Shown here: one piece after another, positions 3,458-49,135 of the stretch
How positions within the stretch are numbered: the first letter of the stretch is position 1
Layout of the letters: each line of letters opens with the position of its first letter
IMG/VR virus record: IMGVR_UViG_3300028832_000095
Coordinates: 137,896-201,895 of that record
Source: a virus
Lineage: Duplodnaviria > Caudoviricetes
DNA: 64,000 bases
Strand: one strand, 5' to 3'
Notes under the pieces: generated by a model
Databases searched by the model: none
Told to the model about the DNA's origin: nothing
Seen by the model: the letters and a program-made list of their open reading frames with translations, nothing else
Program-made: the position numbers and the translations under genes

Positions 3458-3487
3458 TTGACAAATCTCCTGATAATATGTTATAAT
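3458..3487 (+). promoter_or_regulatory. sigmaA/sigma70-type promoter
   Basis: TTGACA-18nt-TATAAT with extended -10 TG and A-rich upstream element. Confidence 0.8.
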
Positions 3488-41404: not shown

Positions 41405-41668
41405 TCAACATTCTCTAAACACATAAACAGGAATTCCATTTTTTGTTTTGTTGTCTACAAGCCACCATGTACTCTCGGATTCACCATCTGATTTTCCGTA
41501 ACCGAAATACATATGATTATATTCATTTGTCTTTTTTACGGTTTCACAGAATAGTTTTTCTTTTGCAATGGATCTTGCTTTGTCAACAGAACAATAATCT
41601 TCCCTGATTGCACATAACATTCCTTTTTTGTCAGAGAACACCATAGCATTTACCTTTGATTTACTCAT
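41405..41668 (-). CDS. hypothetical protein (moron-like, own promoter)
   Basis: GGAGG RBS on - strand; promoter at 41718-41746. Confidence 0.75.
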   Translation of the reverse strand: MSKSKVNAMVFSDKKGMLCAIREDYCSVDKARSIAKEKLFCETVKKTNEYNHMYFGYGKSDGESESTWWLVDNKTKNGIPVYVFREC

Positions 41669-41717
41669 AGTTAAACCCTCCAAATATAATATAGTGGTAG
41701 ATAATACCTACACATAT

Positions 41718-41746
41718 ATTATAACATATTTTATAGAAAATGTCAA
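41718..41746 (-). promoter_or_regulatory. sigmaA-type promoter
   Basis: TTGACA-17nt-TATAAT with TG on - strand. Confidence 0.85.
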
Positions 41747-41783
41747 TATGAAAATTAGATTTTTTGAAAGGGGTTGCTTCACA

Positions 41784-43157
41784 ATGGTAAAAGAATATCA
41801 ATATGGAGATACAACTCAACTATCTGAGCATTTTAATGCAAAGGAATTTCAATGCAAATGTGGAAAACCACACAGCTTCTTTGTTTCGGAGGAACTTATT
41901 GCAAATCTTGAAATTCTAAGATCAACACTTGACTGCCGAAATATTCATGTTTCAAGTGGTTTCCGCTGTCCGGAACATGATGTTGCTGTTGGCGGTAAGG
42001 GAAATGGTAAACATACAAAAGGACTTGCTGCTGATGTTATTTGTTATGATAAAAATGGAAATCCTATTTCATCTAAACTTGTTAGCTGTAAAGCACAAGA
42101 CATTGGATTTAAGGGAATTGCAAATATCACAAAATCATACACTTCTACTCATTTAGATATGCGTGAGGGCAAGAAGTGGTATGGTGATGAAACAAAAGGA
42201 ACATCTTGGGCTTGCAATGATTTTTATGAATACTATGGTATTCCTAGGGATAATAGTGATGAGGATGATAATATGAGTGATACAACAAAACGTGGAATGG
42301 ATATTTCTTATTGTCAAAAGAAAGTTACATGGAGTAAAGTTAAAGGAATTGATTTTGCTATCCTTCGTGCTGGATATGGAAGATATACAAATCAAAAGGA
42401 CTCAATGTTTGAGAGTCATTATGCAGGAGCAAAATCCGTAAATATTCCGGTAGGTGCTTATTGGTACTCATATGCTACAACACCGGAAGATGCTAAAAAA
42501 GAAGCAGATGCTTGTATTGAAGTTATTAAAGGTAAACAATTCGAGTATCCGATATGGTATGATATCGAAGAACAAAAACAGCTTGAAACAGGTAAAAAGA
42601 ATGTTTCTGCTATCGTTCGTGCATTCTTAGAAAAAGTACAGAAAGCCGGATATTGGGTAGGAGTATATTCAATGGTAAGTGCCTTGAACAATTATGTTGA
42701 AGACGATATCTTACAAAAATATTCTGTATGGGTAGCTCATGTCGGCGTTAAGAAACCTTCTTATTCAAAGCCTTATGGAATGTGGCAGTATTCATGGAAA
42801 GGTGTGGTTGATGGAATAACTGGTGACGTTGACATGGATTATGGATATGTTGACTACCCAACCATGATTAAGGAAAAGGGTCTTAATGGCTTTGGTACAC
42901 CTACAGATGATACAGATGATAACAAATGTCCATACCCAGAACCTACAAAAGCAATTCGTGAAGGTGATACCGGAGACAGTGTTAAATGGTTACAATGGAA
43001 TCTAATATATCTTGGATATTTCAATGATGAAATAAATGGAATTTTTGATATCTTTACTCTTGGATCACTTCTTGCATATCAATTAAAGAATAATCTTGCC
43101 GTAGACGGTGTATGTGGTTCTGCTACAAGAAGTTCAATTATAAGTCAAAGTAAATAA
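41784..43157 (+). CDS. endolysin: peptidase M15 + GH25 muramidase + peptidoglycan-binding domain
   Basis: HFNAKEFQCKCG..SSGFRC..H..GLAAD..HLD; GMDISYCQ..ILRAGYG..YWYSYA..YDIEE..WQYS..VDMD; GDSVKWLQ..YQ..L.VDGVCG. Confidence 0.92.
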   Translation: MVKEYQYGDTTQLSEHFNAKEFQCKCGKPHSFFVSEELIANLEILRSTLDCRNIHVSSGFRCPEHDVAVGGKGNGKHTKGLAADVICYDKNGNPISSKLVSCKAQDIGFKGIANITKSYTSTHLDMREGKKWYGDETKGTSWACNDFYEYYGIPRDNSDEDDNMSDTTKRGMDISYCQKKVTWSKVKGIDFAILRAGYGRYTNQKDSMFESHYAGAKSVNIPVGAYWYSYATTPEDAKKEADACIEVIKGKQFEYPIWYDIEEQKQLETGKKNVSAIVRAFLEKVQKAGYWVGVYSMVSALNNYVEDDILQKYSVWVAHVGVKKPSYSKPYGMWQYSWKGVVDGITGDVDMDYGYVDYPTMIKEKGLNGFGTPTDDTDDNKCPYPEPTKAIREGDTGDSVKWLQWNLIYLGYFNDEINGIFDIFTLGSLLAYQLKNNLAVDGVCGSATRSSIISQSK

Positions 43158-44005: not shown

Positions 44006-44034
44006 TTGACAAATATCTAAAAATGTGTTATACT
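44006..44034 (+). promoter_or_regulatory. sigmaA-type promoter
   Basis: TTGACA-17nt-TATACT with TG extension. Confidence 0.85.
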
Positions 44035-44078
44035 ATATTTACAAGGTTAAGATGTGTGATCGGAACAGGAGGTACATT

Positions 44079-44717
44079 ATGGATTCCACAAAGATGATTG
44101 AAACCATTAAGAAATTACTTAGAACTTCTATGGATAGTGGTGCTACTGAGAATGAAGCGAGACTGGCTTCCCTCAAAGCACAGAAACTTATGGCAAAATA
44201 CAACATCGAGATCACTGATGTTGAAGAACAGGAAGAAGATATTTCCTATACTGTTATTGATACAGGAACAGGAAATAAGTGGAAGTATTCTTTGGCAATT
44301 ATTGTTGCAAGAAACTTCTGCTGTAAGTTCTTTACTATCGGAACTGGTAAAATGGCATTCTATGGGTACAACCATAACACAGCGGTTGCAAAAGAAGTTT
44401 TTAATTTTCTGTATAATGTTGGTAACAGACTTGCAATGAGACATTATCAGAATCTCAGATATCGCAATGAGGAAACAAAAGGTGTTAAAAATTCTTTCCT
44501 TATTGGATATGTAAAAGGTATTGCAAGCGTTCTTGATCAGCAGTGCAGAGCCTTAATGCTTGTAACACCTAAGAAGGTTGAAGAAACCTATAAGGAAATG
44601 ACTTCCGAAAATGACTTCCGAACAAAGAATACACGAACTGCATATAATGAAGGAAAGTCTTACGAAGAAGGATACAAAAGGGGCAGAGAAACTGCCGAGA
44701 GTAGATATATTGAATAA
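44079..44717 (+). CDS. DUF2786-domain protein
   Basis: IKKLL..ENEARLASLKAQKLMAKYNI; SFLIGY..GI. Confidence 0.8.
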   Translation: MDSTKMIETIKKLLRTSMDSGATENEARLASLKAQKLMAKYNIEITDVEEQEEDISYTVIDTGTGNKWKYSLAIIVARNFCCKFFTIGTGKMAFYGYNHNTAVAKEVFNFLYNVGNRLAMRHYQNLRYRNEETKGVKNSFLIGYVKGIASVLDQQCRALMLVTPKKVEETYKEMTSENDFRTKNTRTAYNEGKSYEEGYKRGRETAESRYIE

Positions 44718-45340: not shown

Positions 45341-45365
45341 ATATAGTACATCTAGTGTTAAATTT

Positions 45366-45398
45366 TGTAACCCTTGTAACCGCCATACAAGGGTTACA
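45366..45398. repeat. 13-bp perfect inverted repeat at the edge of an AT-rich non-coding tract
   Basis: TGTAACCCTTGTA-ACCGCCA-TACAAGGGTTACA. Confidence 0.8.
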
Positions 45399-45633
45399 TT
45401 TTGTAACATAAAATATATTATATATTAACCACAAAAAAAACAGCATAAAACATAAGATAATATACATTAAACAATAAGTATAATAACACAATAATATAAT
45501 AACTATATGTATATACATTCTTTTAGTAGATAATTGTTTGTTGATTATTTATTAAGATTTTGGCGTTCGTTATATGTTTTAACAATTACAAAAACCGATC
45601 ATATATCAACATAATATTTGTGTAAAATAACTA

Positions 45634-45662
45634 TTGACAACGATTTGCAAATATGTTATACT
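45634..45662 (+). promoter_or_regulatory. sigmaA-type promoter
   Basis: TTGACA-17nt-TATACT with TG extension. Confidence 0.85.
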
Positions 45663-45668
45663 AAAAAT

Positions 45669-45795
45669 GTAAAAGAGTAACGGCTTTACAACATAATTGA
45701 ATAAATACTTGTCCGTGTTTTGTGGTTGTAAAGTCGCTACATGGAGGAATAAACACATCCAGAAGTCCGTTACCTTTTGGGTGTGTTTATTTTTT
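45669..45795 (+). ncRNA. candidate sRNA or attenuator leader (about 127 nt)
   Basis: lies between promoter and terminator, no ORF; stem 45677-92/45725-40; terminator stem 45748-65/45774-91 plus U-run. Confidence 0.6.
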
Positions 45796-45871
45796 ATGTG
45801 TTTGATTTTAATAAGTGTGAAACAAAACAAAACAATATAGGTAAAATATTCTGTTTTGGAGGGGATTCAAA

Positions 45872-47167
45872 TTGGAACAGTCTTTTTTAAGTACAGTGGT
45901 TTCATTGAAGAAATCTGGAATGGGCAACGGTGATATCTATAAAGTGTTGCATAATAAATTTCCAGAACTCACATATGAGTGCATTCGATCCAGAGTTAGA
46001 AGATTAAATATTGATAATATACAGACAGAAAGCGTAAGAGTAGAAGATCAGGAATTAGAACCACAAACAACCTCAATGGAATATCGCAAAGATGGAACTA
46101 TTGTCTTTGAAAAAGTTATTTGTTTAGCAAAGAATCAGGAACTAACACCTGAGAATATACTTATTGCACATGGTATGAATCCTGATAAATGGGAGATTAT
46201 TTCATATAAGAATAACTTTTGGCAATCGCAGAAAAAAGGTGGAGAGATATTAAACCTTTACCAAAGCAAGATTACCGCCAAACCAAGAAAAGAGTATATA
46301 AGCCTAGAAGATATCAAAAAACATTTTGATACTTTTAGCAGAGAACATAAAGCACCAACACCTTTTGATAACTATGTATATCCAAAAGGAAACAGAGAAC
46401 TGTTATATGAAATAAACATATGTGATCTTCATCTTGGAAGATTTTGTTATGACAACGAAACAGATGAACCACTAAGCACAGAGATCACAAAGAAAAGATA
46501 CTTTGATGTTATTAAAGCTGAGTGTGAAAGAATCAAAAGTTTTGGGAATGATGTTTCTAAAATCCTGTTTGTTTGGTCAAATGATTTCTTTAATTCGGAC
46601 GGTATATCAGGATGCACAACTGGTGGAACTCCACAAGATACTGATAAGAAATGGCAAGAATTATATAAAATAGGAATTGAAATGCTTGTTGATACTGTTG
46701 AGATGTTAGTTCAATATGCTCCTGTTATTACATTCTATATAGCTTCTAACCACAGCCGTCAGGTAGATTTTTTTGCGATTAACTATCTGTATGCTTGGTT
46801 TAGAAAATATAGTAATGTCGATGTGTGGACTAACTGTTCTCCAAGACAGTATGTTGTATTTGGTCAAAACTTATTAGGTTTTGCTCATGGGTATTATGAA
46901 AAGAAAGATCAACTTCCATTTTTAATGAGTAATGAGTGTTCTAAAGAATGGTCTAATACAAAGTATAGAGAATTCCACTTAGCACATATTCACTCCGAGA
47001 AAGTAGAAGAAAAAGGCGGTATTGTATTCCGTTGGCTACCAAGTGTGACAAGTGCTGATACATGGTCAAAAGAATGTGGATATGTAATGGCAACAAAAAG
47101 AAGTTATAGTTTTGTATATGATCATGATAAAGGACTTATTCAGATCAATTCAACTATTGTGGAGTGA
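45872..47167 (+). CDS. calcineurin-like phosphoesterase with N-terminal HTH-like region
   Basis: CDLHLG, SNDFFN, SNH, FAHG, AHIHSE; GGAGG RBS with TTG start. Confidence 0.8.
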   Translation: MEQSFLSTVVSLKKSGMGNGDIYKVLHNKFPELTYECIRSRVRRLNIDNIQTESVRVEDQELEPQTTSMEYRKDGTIVFEKVICLAKNQELTPENILIAHGMNPDKWEIISYKNNFWQSQKKGGEILNLYQSKITAKPRKEYISLEDIKKHFDTFSREHKAPTPFDNYVYPKGNRELLYEINICDLHLGRFCYDNETDEPLSTEITKKRYFDVIKAECERIKSFGNDVSKILFVWSNDFFNSDGISGCTTGGTPQDTDKKWQELYKIGIEMLVDTVEMLVQYAPVITFYIASNHSRQVDFFAINYLYAWFRKYSNVDVWTNCSPRQYVVFGQNLLGFAHGYYEKKDQLPFLMSNECSKEWSNTKYREFHLAHIHSEKVEEKGGIVFRWLPSVTSADTWSKECGYVMATKRSYSFVYDHDKGLIQINSTIVE

Positions 47168-47699: not shown

Positions 47700-48395
47700 A
47701 TGATAATAGGTGGTATACAAAAACTAACACTTTTAGATTATCCTGAAAAAGTAGCGTGTACTGTTTTTACATATGGATGCAATTTAAGATGTCCTTTCTG
47801 TCATAATAAAGCATTAGTTACAGAATCCGCAACAAATGTTATTCAGGAACAGCAAATATATGATTTTCTAAAAACAAGAAAAGGAATACTTGATGCTGTA
47901 TGTATCTCAGGTGGTGAGCCTTTTCTTAATTTAGATATAATTGATTTTGCTAAAAACATAAAAGAAATGGGATTCCTTGTAAAAGTAGATACGAATGGAA
48001 CTTTTCCGGAACGATTAGAAGAACTATGTAATACCGGATATATAGATTATGTAGCAATGGATATAAAGAACAGTATTGATAAATATACCATGACTTGCGG
48101 AATAGATAAGATCGTTGTTGGAAAAGTTATGAAATCGGTTAGTTACCTAATGTCACAAGATAAAGTTGATTATGAGTTCAGAACAACTTGCACAGAGACA
48201 TTTCATACTGAGGAAGATATAGATAAAATAGCTTCTTGGATCAAAGGATGTAATCACTATTATTTACAGAAATATCTTTATCGAGAATCCGTTATAGACA
48301 AAACTTGTTTAGAATGTAGTAATGAGAAGATGAAAGACTTCTTAGCTATTGCACAACGGCATATACCGAATACAAAACTAAGAGGAGTTGAATGA
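47700..48395 (+). CDS. nrdG: anaerobic ribonucleotide reductase activating protein (radical SAM)
   Basis: GGIQKLTLLDYP..GCNLRCPFCHN (CxxxCxxC), ISGGEP, KVDTNG, AMDIK, YEFRTT. Confidence 0.9.
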   Translation: MIIGGIQKLTLLDYPEKVACTVFTYGCNLRCPFCHNKALVTESATNVIQEQQIYDFLKTRKGILDAVCISGGEPFLNLDIIDFAKNIKEMGFLVKVDTNGTFPERLEELCNTGYIDYVAMDIKNSIDKYTMTCGIDKIVVGKVMKSVSYLMSQDKVDYEFRTTCTETFHTEEDIDKIASWIKGCNHYYLQKYLYRESVIDKTCLECSNEKMKDFLAIAQRHIPNTKLRGVE

Positions 48396-48398
48396 GAG

Positions 48399-48638
48399 AT
48401 GAAACTATATATTCACGAAAAAGGAAAAGATAATCACTATTTTTATGTTATGGGATGGAAGACAGATAATAAGCAATCTGCACCATATAAGAGATGTAAA
48501 TTCGATATCTATGATGAAGCAGTACAGTTCTTCAAAGACATATCTAAGGTATGTAAATATGTTGAAATGTTTGAGTATATTGGAGGAAAAAGAAAGTGGA
48601 TCGCAGATACAGACGATACTTCCATTTTTGAAACCTGA
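48399..48638 (+). CDS. hypothetical protein with MKLYIHE leader
   Basis: GAGGAG RBS. Confidence 0.65.
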   Translation: MKLYIHEKGKDNHYFYVMGWKTDNKQSAPYKRCKFDIYDEAVQFFKDISKVCKYVEMFEYIGGKRKWIADTDDTSIFET

Positions 48639-48654
48639 TATGTAAAATAAATAC

Positions 48655-48730
48655 AAATCACATAAAGATTCTAAGTAGTTTCTTCAACTACAATATTAGC
48701 AAAGATTCTTTGTGTGATTTTTATTTTATT
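48655..48730 (+). terminator. long interrupted stem-loop with U-rich tail
   Basis: AAATCACATAAAGA/TCTTTGTGTGATTT outer stem; inner CTAA/TTAG and GTAGTT/AACTAC. Confidence 0.55.
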
Positions 48731-48745
48731 TTGGAGGTGGTCGAA

Positions 48746-49135
48746 ATGATCTATGTTCCGGTTGATGTAAGGGAACCGATAGTAGGTAAACCATCTATTA
48801 GAATACAGAATGGACTAACTAATAACTTCCCAGAGATCGTTTTTGAACTTCACGATAAATGTAAATACTTTGATCTTGGTGATGATGTATCTTTAATGGC
48901 AGTTATAACAAATACATATGAAGAATCTGTTGTGTTTACTGGTGAACTAAGTATATTGAATCCACATAGAGGACAGATTCTATGCAAACTCAGCGCAAAA
49001 GACTTTACTAGAACAGGGTTAAACACTTTAACTATCTTATGTACTTCACAGAATTTTGACATTTCATTTCAAAAAACGGTATTTGTAGAATCCATAAGTG
49101 ATTCTATATTAGATATTATGGAAAGGGGAAGCTAA
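48746..49135 (+). CDS. BppU N-terminal-like (baseplate upper protein) domain protein
   Basis: I.QN..IVFEL..FDL..ILNP.RGQI..L..G pattern; GGAGG RBS. Confidence 0.5.
   Translation: MIYVPVDVREPIVGKPSIRIQNGLTNNFPEIVFELHDKCKYFDLGDDVSLMAVITNTYEESVVFTGELSILNPHRGQILCKLSAKDFTRTGLNTLTILCTSQNFDISFQKTVFVESISDSILDIMERGS

Follow-up and report, generated by a model that had tools for sequence, protein, structure and literature searches.

Locus and Promoter

The stretch of DNA analyzed here (the window) comprises the final 64 kb of G000, a 201.9-kb IMG/VR virus record; its G+C content is 32%, and nearly all of its genes are carried on the + strand. Within it, 530 bp without genes separate a group of small ORFs from a phosphoesterase/exonuclease gene, the first gene of a DNA-repair/nucleotide-metabolism operon that includes a radical-SAM NrdG/QueE-like gene. 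The neighborhood contains the following features:

41628–43157, endolysin (GH25/M15/PG-binding), in the 5′ neighborhood of the RNA
44025–44717, DUF2786/DUF7168 gene, followed by small ORFs
45634–45662, + strand, sigma-A/sigma-70-type promoter, 11/12 consensus plus extended −10
45833–45843, + strand, CAnTATAG/A-TA-like motif, 25–40 nt 5′ of the exonuclease ribosome-binding site
45858–45864, + strand, ribosome-binding site GGAGGGG of the phosphoesterase/exonuclease gene
45872 (TTG) to 47167, + strand, phosphoesterase/DNA-repair exonuclease, 431 aa (phrog_704, E 3.7e-62)
47700–48395, radical-SAM NrdG/QueE-like gene (PF04055)

The terminator of the upstream gene (45366–45398) lies inside a 38-nt imperfect palindrome. 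After it, within 45341–45633, come ∼235 bp that hold no genes, are very rich in A+T, and contain several short palindromes. The counterpart of this spacer in L004 and L136, two of the relatives described below, contains direct repeats of AATAAGTATTAAAAC.

The original prediction, made from the DNA letters and a list of ORFs, placed a consensus promoter at the start of the locus, and there we found a −35 element TTGACA (45634–45639), a 17-nt spacer with TG at 45654–45655, and a −10 element TATACT (45657–45662), in total 11 of the 12 consensus positions plus the TG. Transcription is predicted to start at about G45669. The promoter is one of ∼45 near-identical sigma-A-type promoters in G000, which have the form (aaaacaC)TTGACW-N14-TGTGTTATACT, lie nearly all on the + strand, and as a rule precede ATATTTACAAGG and a short 5′ UTR. 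Because it belongs to so large a class, the promoter is very likely real and is in any case credible, yet its match to the consensus is ordinary for this genome. Examples of the class within the window are found at 3458, 5222, 11345, 15485, 18741, 24175, 29658, 44006, 45634, 55141, and 59985, and no further consensus promoter of the class lies between 45634 and 55141.

Downstream of most stereotyped G000 promoters, the first transcribed nucleotides are conserved as ATATTTACAAGGTTAAG. One stereotyped promoter outside the window (G000:C1:69907–70300) precedes a structured leader and then a tRNA-like gene cluster, which implies that the phage encodes its own tRNAs. A k-mer search for a second promoter class found ACTATA near gene starts, mostly as part of sigma-A promoters, and is suggestive only.

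A Predicted Structured Noncoding RNA

From promoter to terminator, the stretch encodes a predicted noncoding RNA of ∼127 nt, the range across its family (family A) being about 105–145 nt. The 129-nt predicted transcript folds at −47 kcal/mol (z = −7.33), and none of 200 shuffled sequences did as well. The elements of the RNA are:

45669–45689, + strand, H1, the 5′-terminal hairpin, starting at about +1; conserved, with covarying stems
45677–45683, + strand, X, heptamer GUAACGG in the H1 loop, one of the two putative kissing partners; pairs with X′ in 11 of 11 sequences
45677–45692, + strand, 5′ strand of P1, overlapping X and the 3′ arm of H1
45725–45740, + strand, segment b, the 3′ strand of P1 and an imperfect decoy for X
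45746–45795, + strand, intrinsic terminator T, with the 8-nt loop UCCGUUAC at 45766–45773 and T6 at 45790–45795
45767–45773, + strand, X′, terminator-loop heptamer CCGUUAC, exactly complementary to X

Stem P1, an 18-bp terminator with a U-run, and a complementarity between the 5′ segment and the terminator loop had all been predicted, and each was found in its place. The 16-nt arms of P1 (45677–45692 and 45725–45740) are 88% complementary with one A·C and one G·U; within the heptamer, segment b faces X with an A·C mismatch and a G·U pair, and in sequence it is similar to the upper part of the terminator 5′ arm together with the terminator loop. The terminator arms (45748–45765 and 45774–45791) are 18 nt long, with the stem extending to 20–22 pairs when G·U is counted, and the 12-nt segments 45672–45683 and 45767–45778 are 83% complementary. 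H1 is made of the 5′ arm GUAAA(A)G (45669–45675), the loop (45676–45683), and the 3′ arm CUUUAC (45684–45689); in the window, it would form in place of P1 and is absent from the minimum-energy fold. In the DNA, GTAACGG and CCGTTAC form an inverted repeat with the copies ∼85 bp apart.

The transcript had been described as lacking an ORF, and it contains no conserved one. A small-ORF reading was considered, based on a 3-codon ATG-GAG-GAA-TAA and a 47-aa TTG frame at 45697–45840, and rejected, as neither is conserved. No tRNA was found at the RNA, and blastn of the region against GenBank phages gave no match. Rfam 15 searched at gathering thresholds over the whole window returned 0 matches, and at E ≤ 10 the interval 45560–45880 returned chance matches only, at 14–25 bits against thresholds of 47–211; this Rfam/Infernal-type scan of the window agrees with the earlier statement that the RNA could not be matched to a known family.

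Distribution among Relatives

More than 240 homologs of the exonuclease were found in metagenomes, and contigs of relatives, fetched via this protein, were searched by eye and with a covariance model (R1) built in this analysis. The RNA occurs at 11 loci belonging to seven lineages (window and L134; L135; L004 and L136; L137; L138 and L164; L165; L167 and L168), all of the sequences being metagenomic and the related contigs stemming from metagenomes of rumen/gut type. Exonucleases at the RNA-bearing loci are 55–97% identical to that of the window, and the family members score 30–110 bits with R1. At all 11 loci, the RNA stands directly 5′ of the phosphoesterase/exonuclease gene and on its strand, with a promoter at the equivalent place in each (11/11); the gene farther upstream varies. 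The predicted position, a leader before the phosphoesterase-to-radical-SAM operon, is conserved among the family members, as is the order promoter, leader, terminator, and gene on one strand, with a TATAG-type motif 3′ of the terminator. That the same downstream gene is kept with a varying upstream neighbor argues for a leader role, as do the lack of another promoter of the class between 45634 and 55141 and the sigma-A promoter found in its place in two relatives without the RNA (L176 and L149).

A single copy of the RNA was found in each of the two genomes searched whole with a positive result, G000 and G001, and R1 found no family-A copy elsewhere in L139–L142, L149, L150, and L176 or in the genomes G002, G004, and G005. 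Further relatives with 55–58% identical exonucleases have no such RNA (L176, L149, L141, L142, L150, L171, L139, and L169). In L176 and L149, a sigma-A promoter of the same type at that spot drives the gene directly; L141, L142, L150, and L171 have no promoter at the equivalent position; and L139 and L169 have a different promoter–RNA–terminator unit there. The last of these (L139:2230–2400 and L169:1190–1340) consists of a consensus promoter and a ∼160-nt RNA dissimilar to the family, ends in a terminator of the form CCGCUAUUGC...GCGAUGGCGG plus U7, and precedes an exonuclease ∼58% identical to that of the window.

Several relatives carry, 5′ of the RNA or of the exonuclease, a gene for a 315–369 aa protein with a weak Pfam match to PemK toxin:

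L137:1268–2215, PemK-like upstream gene
L138:1015–2124, PemK-like upstream gene
L139:1102–2184, PemK-like upstream gene
L142:1294–2298, PemK-like upstream gene

The operon of L142 also holds a 278-aa protein with a YafQ-toxin domain.

A first metagenome scan with a two-sequence protein alignment as the query found no relatives. The exact 15-mer AGTARCGGCTTTACA had 87 matches in viral contigs, which were chance, intragenic matches except for the L004/L068 contig, and a pattern of promoter plus GTAAA..CTTTAC hairpin had 37 matches in viral contigs, which belonged to other phages and were unrelated promoters having a hairpin at +1; none of the 37 had a complementary terminator loop.

Conserved Core and Matched Loop Codes

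Comparison of the 11 sequences indicates that the conserved core is H1 plus the terminator, with complementary loops, and not P1. H1 begins 6–8 nt after the −10 element in the 11 members, that is, at about +1, and its stems covary (GUAAAG/CUUUAC, AUAAAG/CUUUAU, CAAGG/UCUUG, CAAGG/CCUUG, and GAAG/CUUC). The sequences of the terminator stems are unrelated. Across the family, the loops of H1 and the terminator are exactly complementary, with four matched codes (H1 loop/terminator loop):

GUAACGG/CCGUUAC, in six sequences including the window
(G)UAGCGG/CCGCUA(U), in L004 and L136
GUGACGG/CCGUCAC, in L167 and L168
GUUACGG/CCGUAAC, in L165

In an alignment fitted to the H1 and terminator helices of R1 and covering seven lineages only, 98.9% of the cells of the 17 aligned terminator pairs are paired, 16 of these 17 pairs have changed on both sides, and the structure as a whole has 93.8% of its cells paired, in comparison with 74.1% in shuffled data (0 of 500 shuffles reached 93.8%). 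The seven pairs of the loop–loop helix are 100% paired, all with standard pairs, in the 11 sequences, and two columns show double changes (AU 8, GC 2, UA 1; AU 9, GC 2). When the partners were slid by 1–3 columns, 35–50% of the cells of the whole structure were paired. As the loop–loop pairs are absent from R1, they are not biased by the alignment. The RNA of L004 folds with z = −8.2.

Compensatory changes in the stems and in the loop–loop pairing at 11 loci make the RNA element more than chance, and as judged from these sequences it constitutes a conserved RNA family with self-complementary loops. Complementary loops kept by compensatory changes, as expected of a kissing-loop pair, are thus present, and the covariation analysis that the original prediction proposed as a check came out in its favor: the alternative pairing of the 5′ segment with the terminator loop is kept in 11 of 11 sequences. 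That prediction had recognized the 5′ segment as one side of a competing pairing, which stands, and had missed the 5′-terminal hairpin that presents the complementary heptamer in its loop. Since the terminator top is an imperfect inverted copy of H1, the loop contact can extend into the stems, which accounts for the 12 bp originally noted. In transcripts truncated before the lower 3′ arm, the minimum-energy fold is this extended pairing of the 5′ segment with the terminator top.

The same comparison bears on what kind of regulator the RNA might be. It had been called an attenuator or riboswitch-like switch. Gating of the operon by a riboswitch for a metabolite or ion, or by a classical terminator/antiterminator attenuator, would suit the leader position, the competing pairings at the terminator region, and the nucleotide-metabolism genes downstream. 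The riboswitch part of the claim was not upheld: we found no aptamer-like core, and the 40–95 nt between H1 and the terminator are unrelated among the seven lineages, being conserved in neither sequence, length, nor structure. A classical antiterminator fits no better, as the alternative pairing takes up the loop and no more than 5 nt of the 3′ arm. The terminator 5′ arm and lower stem are not sequestered, and at least 13 bp of stem stay in place beside the U-run. The pairing crosses the terminator stem as a pseudoknot or kissing contact and is not mutually exclusive with the terminator. With no Rfam match in addition, we regard a riboswitch or classical attenuator as highly improbable.

P1 and Predicted Bistability

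P1 or an analogous helix masking X is the minimum-energy fold in 8 of the 11 sequences and five of the seven lineages; helices analogous to P1 of the window are found in L134, L135, L138, L164, L165, L167, and L168. In each, the masking is long range, X pairing with a segment b that follows H1 and precedes the terminator. In their distal parts, the P1 helices of the window type and of L135 differ entirely and yet stay complementary, a pattern of covariation, and L138/L164, L165, and L167/L168 have their own versions of the helix. Segment b pairs with X imperfectly, with A·C or G·U in the heptamer, in contrast to the perfect pairing of X with the terminator loop. L137 and L004/L136 (two of seven lineages) have no decoy, and H1 is constitutive in their predicted folds.

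By nearest-neighbor estimates that ignore kissing geometry, the opening of X and X′ costs 7–11 kcal/mol and the kissing duplex gives −8 to −10.5 kcal/mol. Because these energies are similar, the P1 and kissing states appear roughly balanced, and in the modeled folds of the window and most lineages, the RNA looks bistable, either closed by P1 or with H1 open and kissing. Competing pairings had been predicted with P1 as the core. The two partners of the 5′ segment, the P1 3′ strand and the terminator loop, were confirmed, and both pairings are conserved or covarying in the relatives; the central role of P1 was not, and with L137 and L004/L136 lacking P1 in their predicted folds, the three-element switch is not universal.

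A Second Leader Family with the Same Design

A weak R1 match in G003 revealed a different and unrelated leader, family B, in which a promoter is followed by a 5′ hairpin, a middle hairpin, a terminator, and, 10–25 nt on, a ribosome-binding site (12 nt after the terminator in G003). Family B is present in G000, G001, G003, and two further contigs, in front of a gene different from that of family A; the contigs listed for it are L209/L212, L214, L211, and L213. Its codes (5′ hairpin loop region/terminator loop) are:

UCCCAGUC/GACUGGGA, in G003
CGGGCGG/CCGCCCG, in G000, with the promoter at 48235 and the leader at 48264–48420 (locus G000:C1:48235–48430, outside the window)
GCUGCGGAA/UUCCGCAGC, in L211, part of G001
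UUGCCA/UGGCAA, in L213

In G003, the gene after the leader encodes a 175-aa protein with a homolog at 48494–48952 of G000, outside the window; Pfam gave no family for the 175-aa protein. The proteins downstream of family-B leaders are 175–194 aa long, and ACTATA(T/C) occurs just 5′ of the terminator in all of these leaders.

The four codes of family B are unrelated to one another, and in each, the 5′ hairpin matches the terminator loop. When terminator loops were compared with upstream hairpin loops throughout G000, only families A and B exceeded the reversed-word and complement controls. Family B strengthens the case that loop–loop complementarity is a selected design used in leader positions.

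The inverted repeat GTAACGG/CCGTTAC could in principle act in the DNA, as operator half-sites or as a recombination or replication signal, or be fortuitous. Its copies lie precisely in hairpin loops with covarying stems, one of these hairpins being a canonical terminator 3′ of a consensus promoter, and the four codes of family A and four unrelated codes of family B would demand repeated co-evolution of a binding protein; chance is disfavored by the shuffle controls. In view of the hairpin context and the eight matched codes, a DNA-level element or a chance repeat is very unlikely, the least probable of the explanations that we considered.

Two loops per molecule with covarying complementarity are also the hallmark of pRNA self-association (PMC4201828), and the four codes among the seven lineages resemble specificity groups. 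The loops might accordingly pair between molecules, head to tail, in dimers or rings like those of pRNA and with phage-specific codes. We consider this improbable. The predicted folds, which are three consecutive hairpins or P1 plus the terminator, have neither a three-way junction nor a paired 5′/3′ helix; one of the partners is a terminator loop; and the Rfam pRNA model (RF00044) was unmatched even at E ≤ 10. Moreover, the genome is of ∼200 kb and not of 20 kb as in phi29-like phages, and a second RNA built on this design occupies a plain leader position in the same phage.

The Interval between Terminator and Gene

In family A, a poorly conserved spacer of 60–200 nt separates the terminator from the ribosome-binding site. 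It contains the CAnTATAG/A-TA-like motif, which nearly all relatives share whether or not they have the RNA (seen at the equivalent position in L004, L134–L142, L149, L150, L167–L171, and L176). In the window, the motif (45833–45843) falls within the loop of a hairpin (45823–45839/45842–45858) abutting the ribosome-binding site. The motif may be a second, phage-specific promoter or a 5′-UTR element, and if it were a separate promoter, the RNA would be an independent transcription unit.

The motif and the spacer speak for a reading of the RNA as a stand-alone, trans-acting sRNA, made early from the strong promoter and released at the terminator, with the operon served by its own promoter; H1 and the terminator loop would then provide a compact stable fold or seeds for host or phage targets. 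In line with this, the terminator is very strong and no ORF is present, the long spacer separates the RNA from the gene, the TATAG-type motif is kept also in relatives without the RNA, and an sRNA can use its terminator loop for functional pairing, an example being the OxyS–fhlA kissing cited in PMC11979758. Against this, the two most conserved single-stranded elements complement each other and not a common target. No standout target emerged in the phage genome either: in G000, GUAACGG and CCGUUAC occur inside genes at chance frequency, and none of the occurrences is enriched or suggestively positioned. The link to the downstream gene is conserved with upstream genes varying, and in family B, the ribosome-binding site comes directly after the terminator, as in a leader. 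A trans-acting sRNA is a serious alternative, though we think it less probable than a role in cis.

Discussion

From the RNA architecture, matched loops, decoy, noncoding nature, and leader position, all read from the compared sequences, we infer that the RNA may be a cis-acting leader in which loop–loop kissing and P1 compete to tune read-through into the operon, and give this reading about an even chance (∼0.5). Its start site, its 3′ end, and the read-through are all predicted. The RNA would be transcribed from the stereotyped sigma-A-type promoter and end at the very strong intrinsic terminator before the operon. The H1 loop GUAACGG and the terminator loop CCGUUAC could form a kissing helix of 6–7 bp, and this contact, or the extended pairing of H1 with the terminator top, probably arises before transcription of the lower stem is complete; the top of the 20-bp hairpin would fold ∼10–15 nt before the polymerase meets the U-run. 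A kissing or strand-exchanged pairing with H1 would give a pseudoknotted, topologically closed structure, which could slow the zipping of the lower stem and, by delaying completion of the terminator, let some polymerases read into the operon. The role of P1 would be that of an anti-antiterminator, taking X out of play and restoring termination. The split between the two states might be kinetic, set by the speed of transcription, or depend on a factor acting in trans, either a protein or accumulated terminated RNA binding to nascent leaders.

With 17–22 perfect pairs and U6, the terminator should terminate efficiently whatever its loop does. As it is near optimal on its own, the loop contact, if it acts on termination at all, more likely reduces it, and as the lower stem stays free, any effect of kissing on termination is putative. 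The scheme would keep the three-element logic of the original prediction, with a mechanism that would be kinetic or topological rather than one of simple mutual exclusion.

A bolder version, which we hold to be rather unlikely, is an address-coded, RNA-only device, in which each regulated operon would carry a leader whose 5′ hairpin loop and terminator loop share a private code of 6–9 nt, with two codes per genome and codes differing between related phages. Kissing in cis, or in trans between accumulated terminated leaders and nascent ones, would decide read-through. If true, the device would provide a self-timed switch from early to delayed expression with neither a protein nor a metabolite sensor and free of cross-talk with co-infecting relatives.

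As far as the literature searched reaches, the RNA family and the recurrent design of 5′ hairpin and terminator loop appear undescribed. Plasmid copy control offers examples of loop–loop kissing beside a terminator, with a separate antisense RNA as the partner (PMC4878617), and covarying loop pairs are known from phi29 pRNA (PMC4201828). In the phage RNA, a terminator loop is kept complementary to the 5′-terminal hairpin of the same transcript, in seven lineages and with four codes. Terminator loops, it follows from this, can carry conserved information, and families A and B together point to a reusable principle of RNA design among large, uncultured phages of Gram-positive-type hosts. Should kissing tune termination, the design would be a compact, programmable, and protein-free attenuator, of interest for the timing of phage genes and for synthetic biology, with orthogonal codes ready-made.

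Comparison with Known Systems

Kissing between two hairpins of one leader is found in the guanidine-II (mini-ykkC) riboswitch, in which conserved ACGR tetraloops kiss in a ligand-dependent manner to control translation. The phage RNA shares the arrangement of one leader with two hairpins that would kiss via their loops, and differs in that its loops are of 6–8 nt, variable in code, and fully complementary, with no sign of a ligand pocket. The ColE1 RNA I/RNA II and HIV TAR/TAR* complexes are intermolecular kissing pairs of sense and antisense RNAs with fully complementary loops of 6–7 nt. The phage RNA, with loops of 6, 7, and 8 nt and 6–7 pairs, resembles these complexes in size, and its kissing could extend into the stems as it does in antisense/target pairs; unlike in them, the contact is potentially intramolecular and located in a phage leader. 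Rules for such kissing motifs have been described (PMC4872101).

Pairing between the 5′ and 3′ parts of an RNA has precedents in the fold-back inhibition of hok mRNA, the pairing of the icaR 5′ and 3′ UTRs, and the contact of the OxyS terminator loop with fhlA (cited in PMC11979758). In these, as in the phage RNA, a 3′-terminal or terminator region pairs with a 5′ element or the terminator loop serves as a specific pairing surface. They concern the translation or stability of mRNA or a target in trans, in contrast to a short, noncoding phage leader that pairs with itself.

The pRNA of phi29 (RF00044; PMC4201828) is likewise a phage RNA of ∼120 nt with a host-type promoter and two covarying complementary loops in an otherwise divergent sequence. 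Its loops, however, are of 4–5 nt and set on a three-way junction, forming an intermolecular ring on the prohead, in which a terminator loop plays no part, and pRNA occurs in podoviruses of roughly 20 kb.

In function, the phage RNA would be most like the kissing-loop attenuators of Gram-positive plasmids, by analogy with the pT181 RNAI/II and pIP501 RNAIII systems, in which an antisense RNA mediates transcription attenuation (PMC4878617). Common to both are a leader of low-GC Gram-positive type, a loop–loop contact beside an intrinsic terminator, and a specificity set by the loop sequence. In the plasmids, the kissing contact decides between termination and read-through; in the phage RNA, such an effect is putative. 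The plasmid partner is a countertranscript from the opposite strand, which frees or blocks a pre-emptor sequence; in the phage RNA, there is no antisense promoter, and both partners belong to one transcript, one of them being the terminator's own loop.
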